A stretch of DNA of 64,000 nt from an uncultured Pseudomonadota bacterium (GTDB lineage Bacteria; Vulcanimicrobiota; Vulcanimicrobiia; Eremiobacterales; Eremiobacteraceae), in contig CAVTNB010000001.1 of assembly GCA_963736005.1 (NCBI GenBank), forward strand, positions 640,001 through 704,000. Reading direction: 5' to 3'. Numbering within the stretch: position 1 is the stretch's first letter; each line of letters opens with the position of its first letter. Positions 45,229 through 50,571 of this stretch are shown piece by piece. The translations under genes and the position numbers were made by a program. The notes beneath the pieces are model-generated. The model worked only from the letters and a program-made list of their open reading frames with translations. It was not told where the DNA came from and did no database searches.

Positions 45229-45876
45229 TTAGTAGAGCTCGACTTCGCTAAGATTCTTCTCGATCTTACGCTTGACGCGCTGGAGCGCGTTGTCGATCGA
45301 CTTGACATGGCGGTTAAGATCCCGCGCCATCTCTTGATACGACTTGCCTTCCAGATAGCTCAGCAGCACCTGCGACTCGAGATCGCTGAGGTTCTCCTGA
45401 ATGCGCTCCTTGATATCTTCCGAAACTTCCTGGTTGATCACCAGTTCCTCGGGATCCGACATCTTGGCGCTTGCCATCACGTCGAGCAGGGTCCGCTCAC
45501 TATCTTCATCATAGATGGGCTTATTGAGCGAGATGTACTGATTCAGCGGGATGTGTTTCTGCCGCGTCGCTGTCTTGATCGCGGTAATGATTTGGCGCGT
45601 GATGCAGAGCTCCGCGAAGGCCCGGAACGACGAGAGCTTATCCGCGCGAAAGTCGCGAACAGCCTTGTAGAGTCCGATCATTCCCTCTTGAATGATGTCT
45701 TCTCGGTCTGCACCGATGAGAAAGTAGCTCTTAGCCTTGATGCGGACGAAGTTCTTATATTTGTTGAGCAGGAACTCCATGGCGAGGTTGTCGCCACATT
45801 TGGCTGCATTTACGAGTTCTTCGTCGGCGCGCTCACTGTAGTCGTAGGTCTCTTCTACCGGGTGAAGTGCCCCCAA
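45229..45876 (-). CDS. sigH: RNA polymerase sigma-H family factor
   Basis: GADREDIIQEGMIGLYKA, RQKHIPLN and KSIDNALQRVKRK motifs. Confidence 0.96.
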   Translation of the reverse strand: MGALHPVEETYDYSERADEELVNAAKCGDNLAMEFLLNKYKNFVRIKAKSYFLIGADREDIIQEGMIGLYKAVRDFRADKLSSFRAFAELCITRQIITAIKTATRQKHIPLNQYISLNKPIYDEDSERTLLDVMASAKMSDPEELVINQEVSEDIKERIQENLSDLESQVLLSYLEGKSYQEMARDLNRHVKSIDNALQRVKRKIEKNLSEVELY

Positions 45877-46022: not shown

Positions 46023-46077
46023 GGGCGACTTGACAGTCGCCCGCTACGTTTGGGCGACTTGCCAATCGCCCCCTACA
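46023..46077 (-). repeat. Tandem pair of family 1 REPs
   Basis: gggcgacttgacagtcgcccgctac and gggcgacttgccaatcgccccctaca; the second contains the rlmB TAG. Confidence 0.85.
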
Positions 46078-46813
46078 GTTTCTTCGCCGCTTCAAAGAGG
46101 ACGATGGCTGCTGCGCTTGCTGCATTGAGCGATCCGACGCGACCTCGCAATGGAATCCGCACCAAAGCATCGCATCGCTCGCTCACTAAGCGTGACAAAC
46201 CCTTGCCCTCTGCACCGACAACCAAGACGCATTTTCCCGTGTAATCTGCTGTATCGTACTCCTGCGCGGTCGCGGCTGGCGAGAGGCCTGTGACCCAACA
46301 TCCATCCTCTTTGAGTGCCATCAGTGCAGCGACGATATTCGGGACACGAGCAATCTTCAGGTGAGATGTGGCTCCGGCGGCGGCCCGGCGCGTGACCGCG
46401 GTAACAGCGGCGTTGCGGCGATCTGGCATCACCACGGCATTCGCTCCCGCGCCCTCGGCATTGCGCAACACGGCCCCAAGATTCTGCGGATCCTCGAGAT
46501 GATCGATGGCAACGATCAAGGCCTTGCTCGCCTTGCGCACCATCGCTCTGACGTCTGCTATGGGAGTATATGCAAAGGCAGGCAAATCTGCCGCGACGTC
46601 TTGATGGCCTTCTCCCCGACCGAAACGACGATCGCCAGTCGGCACCTCGAAATCAACGGGGATTCCTTGCGAGCGCGCCGTCGCGATTAACGCGGCAAGC
46701 TTTGGATCTTTTTCTCTGTGCTTGGGGACGCGGATGCGCCGGAGCGCCTCGCCTCCCTTAAGCGCTTCGTCAACCGCGTGAAAGCCGTAAATACGTTCCT
46801 CATCGGTTCCCAT
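46073..46813 (-). CDS. rlmB: 23S rRNA (Gm2251) methyltransferase, TrmH family
   Basis: IYGFHAV, DPQNLGAVLR, GAEGKGL, SLNAASA; start trimmed to MGTDEE. Confidence 0.93.
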   Translation of the reverse strand: MGTDEERIYGFHAVDEALKGGEALRRIRVPKHREKDPKLAALIATARSQGIPVDFEVPTGDRRFGRGEGHQDVAADLPAFAYTPIADVRAMVRKASKALIVAIDHLEDPQNLGAVLRNAEGAGANAVVMPDRRNAAVTAVTRRAAAGATSHLKIARVPNIVAALMALKEDGCWVTGLSPAATAQEYDTADYTGKCVLVVGAEGKGLSRLVSERCDALVRIPLRGRVGSLNAASAAAIVLFEAAKKL

Positions 46814-48251
46814 CAAGAGCCCATTCACTGCCGGATTTGAGATCCCGCACATTGACGCCAGCCGATGCAAGCGCGTCGCGCAACCTGTCCGAGGTAGCAA
46901 AGTTCTTCTTGGCCCGAGCCTCTTCACGCAACTCGAGAATGCGATTGACAAGCGCCGCGCCATCCAATTCGCCGTCGCCCGCGAGCGCCCGCAGTAGATC
47001 GCGTTGCGCCGGCGCCAACTCAACCCGACGCGCAACGGGCCAGCCGGCTTGCTCCGCTGTGGCGGGTAATCCCAAAACACCCAGGCAGCGCTCCACGATC
47101 GCAATCGTGTTGCCGGCGGACCGGGGGTTGGCGATCGCGCTCGTGCGCCCTTCGCGCACTTTCGTCTGAAGCCAGCCGAGGGCCCCAGCGGTATTGAGAT
47201 CGTCATCAAGAAAGGCATCGAATGCCGTCGCATCGATCGGGCCCGTTCCACCGATAGCGGCGTGGGACCGCAGCGCGTTGAGCTCCTCGTACAAACCCCG
47301 AAGACCCTTGGCTGCTGCTTCGAGCGCCGCTATCGTAAAGTTCGACGGCTTGCGGTATCCGGTTTGAAGAAAGAGATAGCGGACCGCTGCGGCACGATGC
47401 TGTTGCAAGAGCTCGCGCATGGGTATGAAATTTCCAAGCGACTTGCTCATTTTTTGCCCGTCGACGTTCAGCAACCCGGCGTGAACCCAGAAACGCGCCA
47501 TTGGGTGTTTCCCGGTTGCTGTTTCCGTTTGAGCGATTTCATTCTCGTGATGCGGGAAGACGAGATCCGCCGCTCCGCCGTGGAGGTCGAACTGATCTCC
47601 GAGATAGCGCTTGCACATCGCGGAGCACTCGATATGCCAACCCGGTCGCCCGGGGCCCCAGGGGCTCTCCCACGTCGGCTCGCCCGGCTTCGCCTTTTTC
47701 CAGAGGGCAAAGTCAAGTGGATCGCGCTTTTCCTCACGCACCGCGATGCGTTCGCCGGCGCGCAGTTCGTCCAAATTGCGGCGGCTTAGCTCGCCGTAGT
47801 GCGAGTCCCGCGCGACTGCAAAATAGACGCCGTCACTTGTCTCGTACGCCGCTTCGGATGCGACGAGGCATGCGATCAGACTTGTGATTTCGGGCATCTC
47901 CTGCGTTGCTCGGGGAGAGCAGCTGGGTTCCAGCAAACCAAGCGCTTCAGCGCACTCCTCAAATTCCCCATAGTAACGAGCCACCACGTCATTCCAAGGC
48001 ACCTTGTCCTTTGCTGCGCGATCGATGATGCGGTCATCAATGTCGGTGACGTTTCGGATATAGTTGACCTCGATGCCCTTGGCCCGCAAATGGCGGACCA
48101 AAATGTCAAACGTTAGAAACGTGCGCGCATGACCGAGGTGCGGGTGAAAGCTTGGGGTCATCCCGCAAACATACATCGACACGCGGCCAGGTTGCATTGG
48201 CTCGAACGTTTCGACTTTGCGGGTCAGCGTGTTAAAGAGTTGGAGAGCCAT
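46800..48251 (-). CDS. cysS: Cysteine--tRNA ligase
   Basis: [28 protein letters not shown] and KMSKS motifs. Confidence 0.97.
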
Positions 48252-48903
48252 GACTCGATTCCGCGCTGCGTCGCATTTCAAGCGCATCGATGCGCGCGTT
48301 GAGCGCGGCGAGCGCTTCGCTGGTTGGATCCGGCATGTCGACTTGCGGAATGATCGGTTCTTCGACTTTCTTACCGTCGACAAACACCAGCCTACCAGGC
48401 ACCCCTACCACCGTGCTATTGGGAGGCACCGACTTCACCACAGCGGCACCGGCGGCGACTTTCGAATTGCTCCCGATGACGATGGCGCCAAGGATCGCTG
48501 CTCCCGCACCGACGACGACGTTGTCTTCGAGGGTTGGGTGTCGTTTGCCGTGCTGGAGGCTCGTGCCGCCAAGGGTCACGCCTTGGTAAAGGGTGCAATT
48601 TCTGCCGATCTCGGTTGTCTCTCCAATGACCACACCCATGCCGTGATCGATGAACAATCCGGCGCCGATCTCCGCCCCCGGATGGATCTCAATGCCGGTA
48701 ACAAAGCGCATGATGTGCGAGAGCAGGCGCGGCAGAACTGGAATATGCCAGCGGTAGAGCGGATGAATGAATCGATGGGCGACAACGGCATGGAGGCCGG
48801 GATATGCTAGGAGCACCTCAAGCCAGTTGACGGCGGCGGGATCGCGCTCGAAGCATGCTCGCCAGTCAGCCTGCACTTGTCTGAAGATGGAATCGCGTTT
48901 CAT
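48232..48903 (-). CDS. cysE: Serine O-acetyltransferase
   Basis: [27 protein letters not shown] and KRHPTL motifs. Confidence 0.97.
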
Positions 48904-49011
48904 GGTAGTCCTGCCTCGCCCGTTGTGACGTTGGTTCGCGAGTTCATTCGCGACCGTAGAAAGGATGAAGGGCGCTTAAGCGCCCTGTCAACAGCAACAG
49001 CGGCAGGACTG
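48904..49011 (-). promoter_or_regulatory. RBS-sequestering attenuator structure upstream of cysE
   Basis: mRNA AGUCCUGCC-GCU-GUUG (49010-48995) pairs with CAAC-GGGC-GA-GGCAGGACU (48925-48907); inner hairpin 48969-48986. Confidence 0.75.
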
Positions 49012-49059
49012 TATCAGACTTTTGGAAGTGGGCGGCAACGGCCGTGCGGCTCTGTGCAT
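48988..49059 (-). CDS. Cys-rich leader peptide (23 aa)
   Basis: GAAGGTGG SD, 7-nt spacer, then MHRAARPLPPTSKSLIQSCRCCC-TGA. Confidence 0.8.
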   Translation of the reverse strand: MHRAARPLPPTSKSLIQSCRCCC

Positions 49060-49074
49060 CTGGATGCCACCTTC

Positions 49075-50571
49075 TCAGACGGGGCGGGACTGCTCCTGCC
49101 CGATCTGTTGGAACCGGTCAAGCGACGTCTTCATGCGGAGCGCGATGCGCTTGGGACCGAGGAGCCGAAGCAGCAGGGGCAGCTCGATGCCGTGTTCGGA
49201 ACCCGTGGTCGCGAGGCGAATCGGCCGAAAGAGCGATCGTCCTTTCAAGCCGTACTTGTCGCCGAGTGCTTTGAGCCCTTCCTTTGAAGTGGCACGCGCA
49301 AACTGTTCGGCGGTTTTTGCGCTCTCGGCGATGTGACGCAGTTCCTCGAGCATCTGCCGAACCGGTGCTTGCGCAAACGCTACATCGGCGCTCGGATCCC
49401 AAGGAAGCGTGTCGCTCAGCAGTGACTCAAGTTCGCGTGGGATGTCTGAGAGCACCTCAATGTGATCGCTTGCTGCTTCTGCAAAACTTTCTAACCATGC
49501 CGGATCGTTCACCTCCGGTAAGTCCGCCAAGCGTCCGTCGCGTCGCACTGTCTGCCCAAAGAGCGAAGCACGATCGGCGATCGTCCGGCGACGGATATAC
49601 TGTGCATTGAACCAGCGCAGTTTGCCCGAGTCGAAGATCGCAGGACTCTTGCTCGCTCGCTCGAGCGAGAACGCAGTCGCGAGCTCGTCGAGGCTGAAGA
49701 ACTCGCGGTCGTCTCCCGGCGACCACCCCAAGAGGGCAAGATAGTTCACGAGCGCTTCAGGCAAAAACCCTGCATCGCGGTATTCTCCCACCGCCGTGGC
49801 ACCGTGGCGCTTTGACAATTTGTGATGATCGGGCGCGAGAATCATGGAGACGTGGGCGAAGAGGGGCAGTGCCAACTCGAGCGCTTCGAAGAGCGCGACT
49901 TGGCGTGGCGTGTTCGGTAGATGTTCGTCGGCGCGGATCACGTGCGTGATGCCCATATCGCTATCGTCAACGACCACCGCGAAGTTGTACGTTGGTGTTT
50001 TGTTCGGGCGTAAAATGACGAAGTCACCGAGCGTGCCTGCCGGGAAATGAATGGAGCCACGGATGAGGTCTTCGACATACATGTCGCGCTGGGGCATAGC
50101 AAACCGCAGTGCGGGCGTACGACCCGCCGTTTCCAAGACAACTCGCTGCTGGGCAGTTAGGTTGCGACACTTGCCTGAATATTTTGGAGCTTCGCCGCGT
50201 TTTTCTTGAGCGGCGCGCTCCGCCTCGAGTTCTTCGGGCGTGCAGTAGCACGCATACACGGCTTCAGTTTCGATGAGGCGAGCCGTGGCAAGCGCATAGC
50301 GATCCAGACGCTCGGTCTGACGGTACGGCGCAAACGGGCCGCCCACATCTGGGCCCTCATCCCAATTCAGGCCAAGCCATCGCAGGTCGGCCGCAATGGC
50401 CGCTTCGTGCTCCCGGCTCGAGCGCTCGGCATCCGTGTCTTCAGAGCGAAGCACCAGCGTCCCATTGTTGTGCCGCGCAAAGAGATAATTGAAGAGCGCC
50501 GTTCGCGCGCCGCCGACGTGGAGCGCACCTGTCGGCGAGGGAGCGAAGCGAACGCGTACAAGGGGCGTCAT
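49075..50571 (-). CDS. gltX: Glutamate--tRNA ligase
   Basis: RFAPSPTGALHVGG; KLSKRHGA; start trimmed to MTPLVR. Confidence 0.97.
   Translation of the reverse strand: MTPLVRVRFAPSPTGALHVGGARTALFNYLFARHNNGTLVLRSEDTDAERSSREHEAAIAADLRWLGLNWDEGPDVGGPFAPYRQTERLDRYALATARLIETEAVYACYCTPEELEAERAAQEKRGEAPKYSGKCRNLTAQQRVVLETAGRTPALRFAMPQRDMYVEDLIRGSIHFPAGTLGDFVILRPNKTPTYNFAVVVDDSDMGITHVIRADEHLPNTPRQVALFEALELALPLFAHVSMILAPDHHKLSKRHGATAVGEYRDAGFLPEALVNYLALLGWSPGDDREFFSLDELATAFSLERASKSPAIFDSGKLRWFNAQYIRRRTIADRASLFGQTVRRDGRLADLPEVNDPAWLESFAEAASDHIEVLSDIPRELESLLSDTLPWDPSADVAFAQAPVRQMLEELRHIAESAKTAEQFARATSKEGLKALGDKYGLKGRSLFRPIRLATTGSEHGIELPLLLRLLGPKRIALRMKTSLDRFQQIGQEQSRPV

Follow-up and report, generated by a model that had tools for sequence, protein, structure and literature searches.

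A conserved cysteine-codon leader ORF between gltX and cysE in a family of Eremiobacterota, predicted to act as a ribosome-sensed attenuator of cysE-cysS

The gltX-cysE junction and its start signals

The window (the whole 64-kb stretch of DNA analyzed) carries a gltX-cysE-cysS-rlmB operon on its minus strand, followed by sigH. All five genes were named by matches above NCBIfam cut-offs. The last 20 nt of cysE are shared with the start of cysS, the start of rlmB likewise overlaps the end of cysS, and Rho is encoded in the genome. The features of the locus, in window positions, are as follows.

45229..45876, minus strand: sigH, Spo0H-type sigma factor (TIGR02859, 341 bits, cut-off 294.8; found in 59 of 61 class genomes)
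46073..46813, minus strand: rlmB (TIGR00186, 189 bits, cut-off 160; ATG 46813)
46800..48251, minus strand: cysS, cysteine-tRNA ligase (TIGR00435, 435 bits, cut-off 340; ATG 48251)
48232..48903, minus strand: cysE, serine O-acetyltransferase (TIGR01172, 234 bits, cut-off 210.65; ATG 48903)
48907..48915, minus strand: cysE Shine-Dalgarno (SD) region, GGCAGGACU (GCAG unchanged in all 27 aligned loci)
48932..48954, minus strand: extra hairpin, GGUCGCGAAUGAACUCGCGAACC (this genome and its closest relative only)
48966..48990, minus strand: hairpin beginning at the leader stop codon, UGA-C-AGGGCGC-UUAA-GCGCCCU-UCA (7-bp stem, AGGGCGC-TTAA-GCGCCCT at 48986-48969)
48988..49059, minus strand: leader ORF of 23 codons plus UGA, Cys codons 19, 21, 22, and 23
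49002..49010, minus strand: anti-SD, AGUCCUGCC, in Gln-Ser-Cys-Arg codons (paired with 48915-48907 in the minimum free energy and centroid folds)
49067..49074, minus strand: possible leader SD, GAAGGTGG, on gltX read-through RNA (-8.0 kcal/mol with the 16S tail; not conserved)
49072..49097, minus strand: predicted SigH-type promoter motif (AGGA at 49097-49094, 19 nt, GAA at 49074-49072)
49075..50571, minus strand: gltX, glutamate-tRNA ligase (TIGR00464, 507 bits, cut-off 290; ATG placed at 50571)

The gltX stop codon TGA (49077-49075) is followed by the leader ATG at 49059, 23 codons (MHRAARPLPPTSKSLIQSCRCCC), and TGA at 48990-48988, just where the first-pass annotation of this DNA had placed a Cys-ending 23-codon ORF. 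The peptide ends in S-C-R-C-C-C directly before UGA, and the element as a whole is compact (~160 nt). The 2.84-Mb genome has 41,718 short ORFs, and only 2 of them have at least four Cys codons among their last five. The second of these is antisense to a called gene and was rejected as a Cys leader. No further convincing Cys leader was found in the genome: an ORF upstream of a gene that we take, from the sequence read by eye, to be pilC-like overlaps the end of the preceding gene, and the two best matches to cysK-like genes have coding sequence directly upstream, a judgment made on that adjacent sequence.

Translation of the leader had been attributed to the SD GAAGGTGG. Only 6 of 30 loci reach -5 kcal/mol or better when the leader SD region is paired with the 16S tail, so that this region does not stand as a conserved start signal. 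The GAA of GAAGGTGG belongs, as the -10 part, to a conserved AGGA-N17..19-GAA element that is overlapped by the last gltX codons. In relatives, AGGA (or a near variant) is followed after 17 to 19 nt by GAA and then, about 9 to 14 nt farther on, by the start codon; the motif is also kept where an insertion parts cysE from gltX (L014, L015, L027, and L028). Genome wide, a called-gene ATG lies 9 to 13 nt behind 15 of 261 AGGA-N17..19-GAA sites (0.74 expected), versus 5 of 1,162 sites with other spacings (3.3 expected), with simple gene calls and with a spacing and window chosen after the leaders had been seen. When a matrix trained on the 15 sites is applied to the leader loci, the first start codon behind the best site opens a frame that ends at the leader stop in 23 of 30 cases. 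SigH promoters of Clostridium difficile have the same shape, and the sequences listed for them mostly end 9 to 12 nt behind GAA, which are taken here as mapped starts, as far as the available text of the source goes (PMC7438776).

The genome thus combines AGGA, a 17- to 19-nt spacer, and GAA with an encoded SigH. The sigH gene lies 3 kb downstream of the leader, and this genome and its closest relative each have two sigH copies. The sigH product is a candidate reader of the predicted promoter, an ECF sigma factor of similar specificity being the alternative. Because the conserved promoter motif lies close to the AUG, about 12 nt ahead of it, and the SD is not conserved, translation of the leader probably begins on a near-leaderless RNA; at this locus the promoter spacing fits such a start, but an SD is present too, and gltX read-through RNA with the local SD may add to leader translation. 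Self-regulation of SigH via the leader is weakened by a separate TTGACG-N17-TATAAT before sigH, at about 45961-45933. More broadly, the 15 of 261 promoter sites and the presence of sigH in 59 of 61 class genomes suggest a SigH regulon with leaderless RNAs outside Bacillota.

Other features were seen near the operon. A gene with a YdeI/OmpD-associated domain (PF13376; 50609-51175, minus strand) lies between ispF and gltX and has a palindromic repeat on each side. This short repeat starts with TAG, which is often the stop codon of a gene, and presumably resembles a GTAG-type REP element. Six copies occur in the window (42445, 46062, 50598, 51172, 60211, and 62149, minus strand; 0.04 expected) and about 110 in the genome (222 counts over both strands).

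Conservation of the leader among relatives

The cysE gene was found in 61 of 61 relatives searched. Family f1, to which the window belongs and which is probably Eremiobacteraceae, comprises 32 genomes, of which 30 were retained after L005 and L024, with contigs ending 28 and 79 nt upstream, were dropped. An in-frame leader with at least two terminal Cys codons is found in 26 of the 30 and in 8 of 10 genera, related genomes not being independent trials. These counts include the unpublished genomes G008 (L012), G011 (L030), and G013 (L006); the leader of genus g6 is represented by G008 only, and the one-Cys ORF described below by G011. Leaders are 9 to 26 codons long and have 2 (L015) to 11 (L017) Cys codons, and neither the sequence nor the length of the peptide front is conserved. 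A Cys-ending leader is also present in L062, a Candidatus Eremiobacteraceae record and the best named cysE match (identity of 71%), ahead of other Eremiobacterota/Vulcanimicrobiota records. L035, the only genome from a third family, carries a 17-codon ORF including four Cys codons behind the same promoter motif. In addition, a 29-letter leader-only pattern gave seven metagenome matches; all seven are flanked by gltX and cysE and have an AUG in frame, and three are repeats of known leaders of the set.

Four family genomes depart from this pattern. L058 has all motifs with the expected AUG out of frame, in an assembly in which gltX and cysE are also frameshifted. L020, representing one genus, is without a leader and has a gap of 18 nt. 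In genus g9 (L029 and L030), the promoter motif and a 14-codon ORF are kept 100 to 55 nt upstream of cysE, with 0 and 1 Cys codons; L029 has Pro-Pro-Pro at the place of the anti-SD, and its fold still covers the SD. In a FastTree phylogeny of cysE and partial cysS (48 rows), the family is supported at 0.90, and the positions of the leader-less genera are too weakly supported (0.18 to 0.49) to settle the direction of loss.

Within the peptide, the Cys run is the part that is kept. Terminal codons are Cys in 103 of 168 cases in the leader frame versus 1 and 0 in the other frames, a difference partly built in by the picking of leaders. Both synonyms are used (68 UGC and 55 UGU of 123; UGU makes up 22% in genes), UGU is the final sense codon at 26 of 30 loci, and UGA is the stop at 29 of 30, while genes use the three stops evenly. 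The leader is real and family-wide, with a probable cis-regulatory role, and the peptide itself is probably without function. The UGA and the hairpin behind it, a tRNA-Sec in the genome, and the lack of a conserved leader SD would also suit an untranslated ORF in which the conserved sequence acts as an RNA or DNA element (protein operator, riboswitch, degenerate T-box, or SECIS) and the Cys frame is a by-product. This reading is very improbable, as the promoter matrix derived from other genes recovers the leader-frame start in 23 of 30 loci despite length change and Rfam gives no match at E values up to 10 (48700-49300). The hairpin loop lies about 9 nt from UGA and is unconserved. Bacterial SECIS elements differ in both respects. 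SECIS and UGA read-through were rejected on the loop position and because the stop-to-cysE spacing (54 to 100 nt) keeps no frame.

Outside the family, no such leader was found in 28 loci of the sister family f2, nor in 24 of 25 more with upstream sequence (three weak f2 matches fall inside the upstream gene), and none among 15 loci of other classes of the phylum was convincing. Searching the family for three Cys codons followed by TGA was uninformative, giving 3 to 17 matches per genome and controls of similar size. In 79 further named loci (L063 to L141), two ORFs have three Cys codons among the last seven, one of them a plausible leader: in L137 (Acidobacteriia), an 18-codon ORF (2300-2356) with three tandem Cys codons lies about 200 nt before cysE, with a TTGACA/TAGCAT-like promoter ahead and a hairpin after it, and is possibly an independent Cys leader. 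L182, from another class of the phylum, has a 9-codon ORF in which two Cys codons directly follow the start; it lies 88 nt upstream of a cysE-like match and could be chance.

The f2 loci (L031 to L061 and L149 to L171) have a different sequence upstream of cysE, (C)AACC-N6/7-TTGAC-N8-GGTTA(A/C)ACT, with the cysE ATG 7 to 8 nt behind it; the strict pattern is found in 10 of 28 loci and in more by eye. It may be a palindromic operator or overlapping promoters, and cysE is probably leaderless there. In many f2 loci (for example, L037, L038, L042, and L046 to L049), the gene before cysE has no gltX tblastn match, or cysE directly follows a gene that, read by eye, we assume to be ispF-like; gltX seems to have diverged, split, or moved in those genomes.

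Pairing with the cysE Shine-Dalgarno region and predicted control

The RNA of the Cys tract is predicted to pair with the SD of the next gene. AGTCCTGCC (49010-49002) exactly complements GGCAGGACT (48915-48907), whose end is 3 nt before the cysE ATG (48903); the 9 perfect bp between Ser-Cys codons and the cysE ribosome binding site that had been proposed are therefore present, and relatives keep a pairing of 7 to 9 bp. Seven more pairs proposed alongside them form in a duplex calculation, but the whole-region fold favors local hairpins and these pairs are not conserved, the CAAC-GGGC stretch occurring only here and in the closest relative, which reads CAAA. The 221-nt region beats 197 of 200 shuffles in folding (z = -2.45). 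In each of 24 loci, the cysE SD is covered by a longest helix of 7 to 12 bp that lies within Ser-Cys or Cys-run codons, the registers being the longest available, which favors pairing; the position table of helices leaves out L014, L017, L021, L029, L030, and L035, in which the best helix is elsewhere. One helix position is C-G in 13 and U-A in 7 loci; in L016, a different sequence forms a helix of 12 bp.

Of 178 SD-like sites in the genome, only 5 have GC ahead of AGGA, and this rarity, together with the invariant GCAG, fits selection for pairing with UGC. Covariation is weak: own leader-ribosome binding site pairs average -18.2 kcal/mol versus -16.7 kcal/mol for cross-genus pairs, with a genus-level permutation P value of 0.023 (median) and 0.24 (worst). 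Weak covariation is expected, since coding constrains one strand and pairing with the 16S tail constrains the other. Alignment of relatives, which had been suggested as a check, thus bears out conservation of the Cys codons and of the pairing and gives weak compensatory stem change. An upstream GGCAGGA was rejected as an alternative partner of the anti-SD, since with 120 nt of gltX RNA the SD is still closed (11.3 kcal/mol) and this site does not covary with the anti-SD.

The effect of a ribosome was computed with a 28-nt block on the RNA as its stand-in and the cost of opening the SD core as the readout. Comparison of the free RNA with RNA blocked at the Cys codons, also a suggested check, gave an opening cost of 10.1 kcal/mol in the free RNA and of 2.7 to 3.0 kcal/mol with the block at any Cys codon in the A site. 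With the block over codons 4 to 13, the cost is 9.2 to 12.7 kcal/mol. By this computation, the SD would become accessible once a ribosome sits on the Cys codons. Among relatives, the cost drops by at least 2 kcal/mol in only 20 of 27 loci (median drop, 3.9 kcal/mol). The original proposal that a ribosome at the Cys run masks the anti-SD and frees cysE is accordingly supported, at the level of a model, by conservation and blocked-footprint folding.

A block at the leader stop codon opens the SD too (2.9 kcal/mol), so control must rest on dwell time. That the SD opens for a ribosome anywhere in the final third of the ORF would equally suit a translated ORF serving as a constitutive opener or coupling device, or a Cys-rich peptide that binds metal or senses redox, with a signal other than cysteine supply; genus g9, which keeps promoter, ORF, and sequestering fold with 0 to 1 Cys codons, points the same way. 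However, Cys codons persist through synonymous substitution and number 9 to 11 per leader in some genera while the peptide front is unconserved, and the downstream genes make cysteine and Cys-tRNA, which leaves such a role quite unlikely.

The stop-codon hairpin is the second conserved structure. In folded Cys-leader loci it starts within about 9 nt of the stop, and UGA often pairs with UCA. In a 20-row alignment (without g5 rows), 85% of its cells are paired versus 39 to 63% in slid controls, with one two-sided pair change; L011 and g4 keep the hairpin with changed sequence in another register. The 7-bp GC hairpin after the leader stop is thus present as first described, whereas the termination ascribed to it is not supported: an intrinsic terminator scan gave 0 sites, and the supposed weak U tract begins with bases (UCA) that pair with the UGA stop. 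A sigma-70 promoter scan also gave 0 sites. The locus therefore differs from a classical trp/his-type attenuator, in which a U-tract terminator competes with an antiterminator, there being 0 terminator-like sites here and no U tract in two genera.

Cys-tRNA sensing with a mainly transcriptional output would nevertheless give the hairpin a role, either as a terminator or pause site for polymerase or in combination with a pyrimidine-rich linker that loads Rho; a ribosome stalled at the last Cys codons would cover the 5' arm of the hairpin. The hairpin is conserved, the linker is U-rich in several genera and 68 to 83% pyrimidine in 12 loci, and Rho is present; the accessible parts of earlier work also propose Rho control for actinobacterial cys leaders (PMC1262725) and a terminator for the Rhodobacterales cysS uORF (PMC8632094). 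This output is improbable here, given that the terminator scan made no call, two genera have G+C-rich linkers without a U tract, the first U's pair with the stop codon, and the SD pairing would be left unexplained.

Considered together, a ribosome-sensed translational attenuator of cysE-cysS-rlmB, working like mycobacterial Ms5788A, is the probable function of the element, as modeled from sequence. In this scheme, SigH-RNA polymerase would make a near-leaderless transcript, and gltX read-through may also feed the leader. In the free RNA, the cysE SD would be buried. With ample Cys-tRNA, the ribosome would pass and leave, the helix would close, and cysE initiation would be blocked; given the cysE-cysS and cysS-rlmB overlaps and the presence of Rho, this block could extend to cysS and rlmB through overlap coupling and Rho polarity. 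With scarce Cys-tRNA, the ribosome would wait on UGC/UGU and cover the anti-SD, and cysE-cysS would be translated. The stop-codon hairpin probably makes the loop that separates anti-SD from SD shorter, and it may prolong the pause.

T-boxes and known cysteine leaders

The first-pass annotation was right that the Bacillus-type gltX-cysE gap holds a T-box: one was found in 4 of 4 scanned Bacillota gltX-cysE-cysS loci. The T-box search that it suggested found none at this locus, and 16 other loci, 9 of them in Eremiobacterota, also lack one. Rfam gave no T-box or other family for the gap at gathering level in the window, the T-box model (RF00230; stem I and UGGN antiterminator) matched the Bacillota loci and not this one, and none was found elsewhere in this genome, which is 84% complete. 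Of 121 genomes of the phylum, 0 had a T-box above the Rfam cut-off. The sister family has neither T-box nor leader. The claim that attenuation replaced a T-box is consequently not supported: no T-box was found at cysE in the Eremiobacterota loci scanned, so that the two devices share a position, which falls short of a substitution, and actual displacement of a T-box at this site is unlikely. In another family of the phylum, three loci (L142, L143, and L144) have T-box-like leaders scoring 81 to 86 bits, just under the Rfam cut-off, and possibly acquired from Bacillota. The gene behind them is, we presume, TrpB-like and not cysE.

A wider picture can be drawn more tentatively, and we rate it as somewhat less than an even prospect: in Eremiobacterota, outside Bacillota, a Spo0H-type SigH would make leaderless transcripts, expression of cysE-cysS would need both this sigma factor and a stalled ribosome, the gap before cysE would have received three unrelated solutions, and the g9 leader would have lost its Cys codons. 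If so, the solutions would be a T-box (Bacillota), a leader peptide (f1), and a DNA motif with probably leaderless cysE (f2), and the g9 leader would perhaps sense something else, as Pro-Pro-Pro in L029 may hint. The SigH-type promoter class with close start codons would also be of interest in a poorly known soil phylum.

No description of such a leader in Eremiobacterota was found in the openly accessible articles searched, and no passage on cysteine was found in PMC4833913. The mechanism itself is already published for mycobacteria and is not new; what is probably new is the phylum, the operon, and the likely SigH-type near-leaderless start. As far as the accessible text of that study goes, reporters show that the leaderless polycysteine ORF Ms5788A frees the SD of the next gene, a logic demonstrated by mutagenesis, and a polycysteine ORF, Rv2334A, precedes cysK1-cysE (Canestrari et al., 10.1101/834739). 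Like these, the Eremiobacterota leader is a short ORF that closes with a run of Cys codons, its Cys tract is predicted to pair with the next SD, a stalled ribosome would free that SD, and cysteine genes lie downstream; these are the features of the Ms5788A type that sequence can show. Judged by promoter spacing, it probably also lies at the 5' end of its transcript. Unlike the mycobacterial leaders, it belongs to a gltX-cysE-cysS-rlmB operon of Eremiobacterota, so that a tRNA synthetase is covered too, and it has a SigH-type promoter motif, a 7- to 9-bp helix, and a separate stop-codon hairpin; one leader and no regulon was found in the genome, and its evidence comes from sequence. Ribosomal cysteine sensing, so far tested in mycobacteria, would thereby extend to another phylum and to a cysE-cysS operon, and the naturally varying leaders (with 2 to 11 Cys codons, rebuilt helices, or lost Cys codons) form a series for relating codon number to sensitivity.

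The remaining comparisons likewise follow the accessible portions of the sources. Cys leader peptides were predicted for cys/cbs operons of Mycobacterium, Propionibacterium, and Bifidobacterium (Seliverstov et al. 2005, PMC1262725); they share Cys codon runs near the stop and the lack of a clear terminator with the leader described here, but have no conserved hairpin and were proposed to use Rho, whereas here the anti-SD and hairpin are conserved. The uORFC-8-2 motif before cysS in Rhodobacterales (PMC8632094) is likewise a predicted Cys-codon uORF controlling cysteinyl-tRNA synthetase, but has two Cys codons, an intrinsic terminator, and a transcriptional output and belongs to alphaproteobacteria. 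The T-box of the gltX-(T-box)-cysE-cysS order listed in PMC4342826 has its position, gene order, and signal (tRNA-Cys charging) in common with the present leader. It differs in that its RNA binds tRNA directly and controls termination without an ORF, and it has no sequence or structure match here. T-box in Bacillota and leader in Eremiobacterota would thus be two RNA-based sensors of one tRNA, placed at a shared gene junction.
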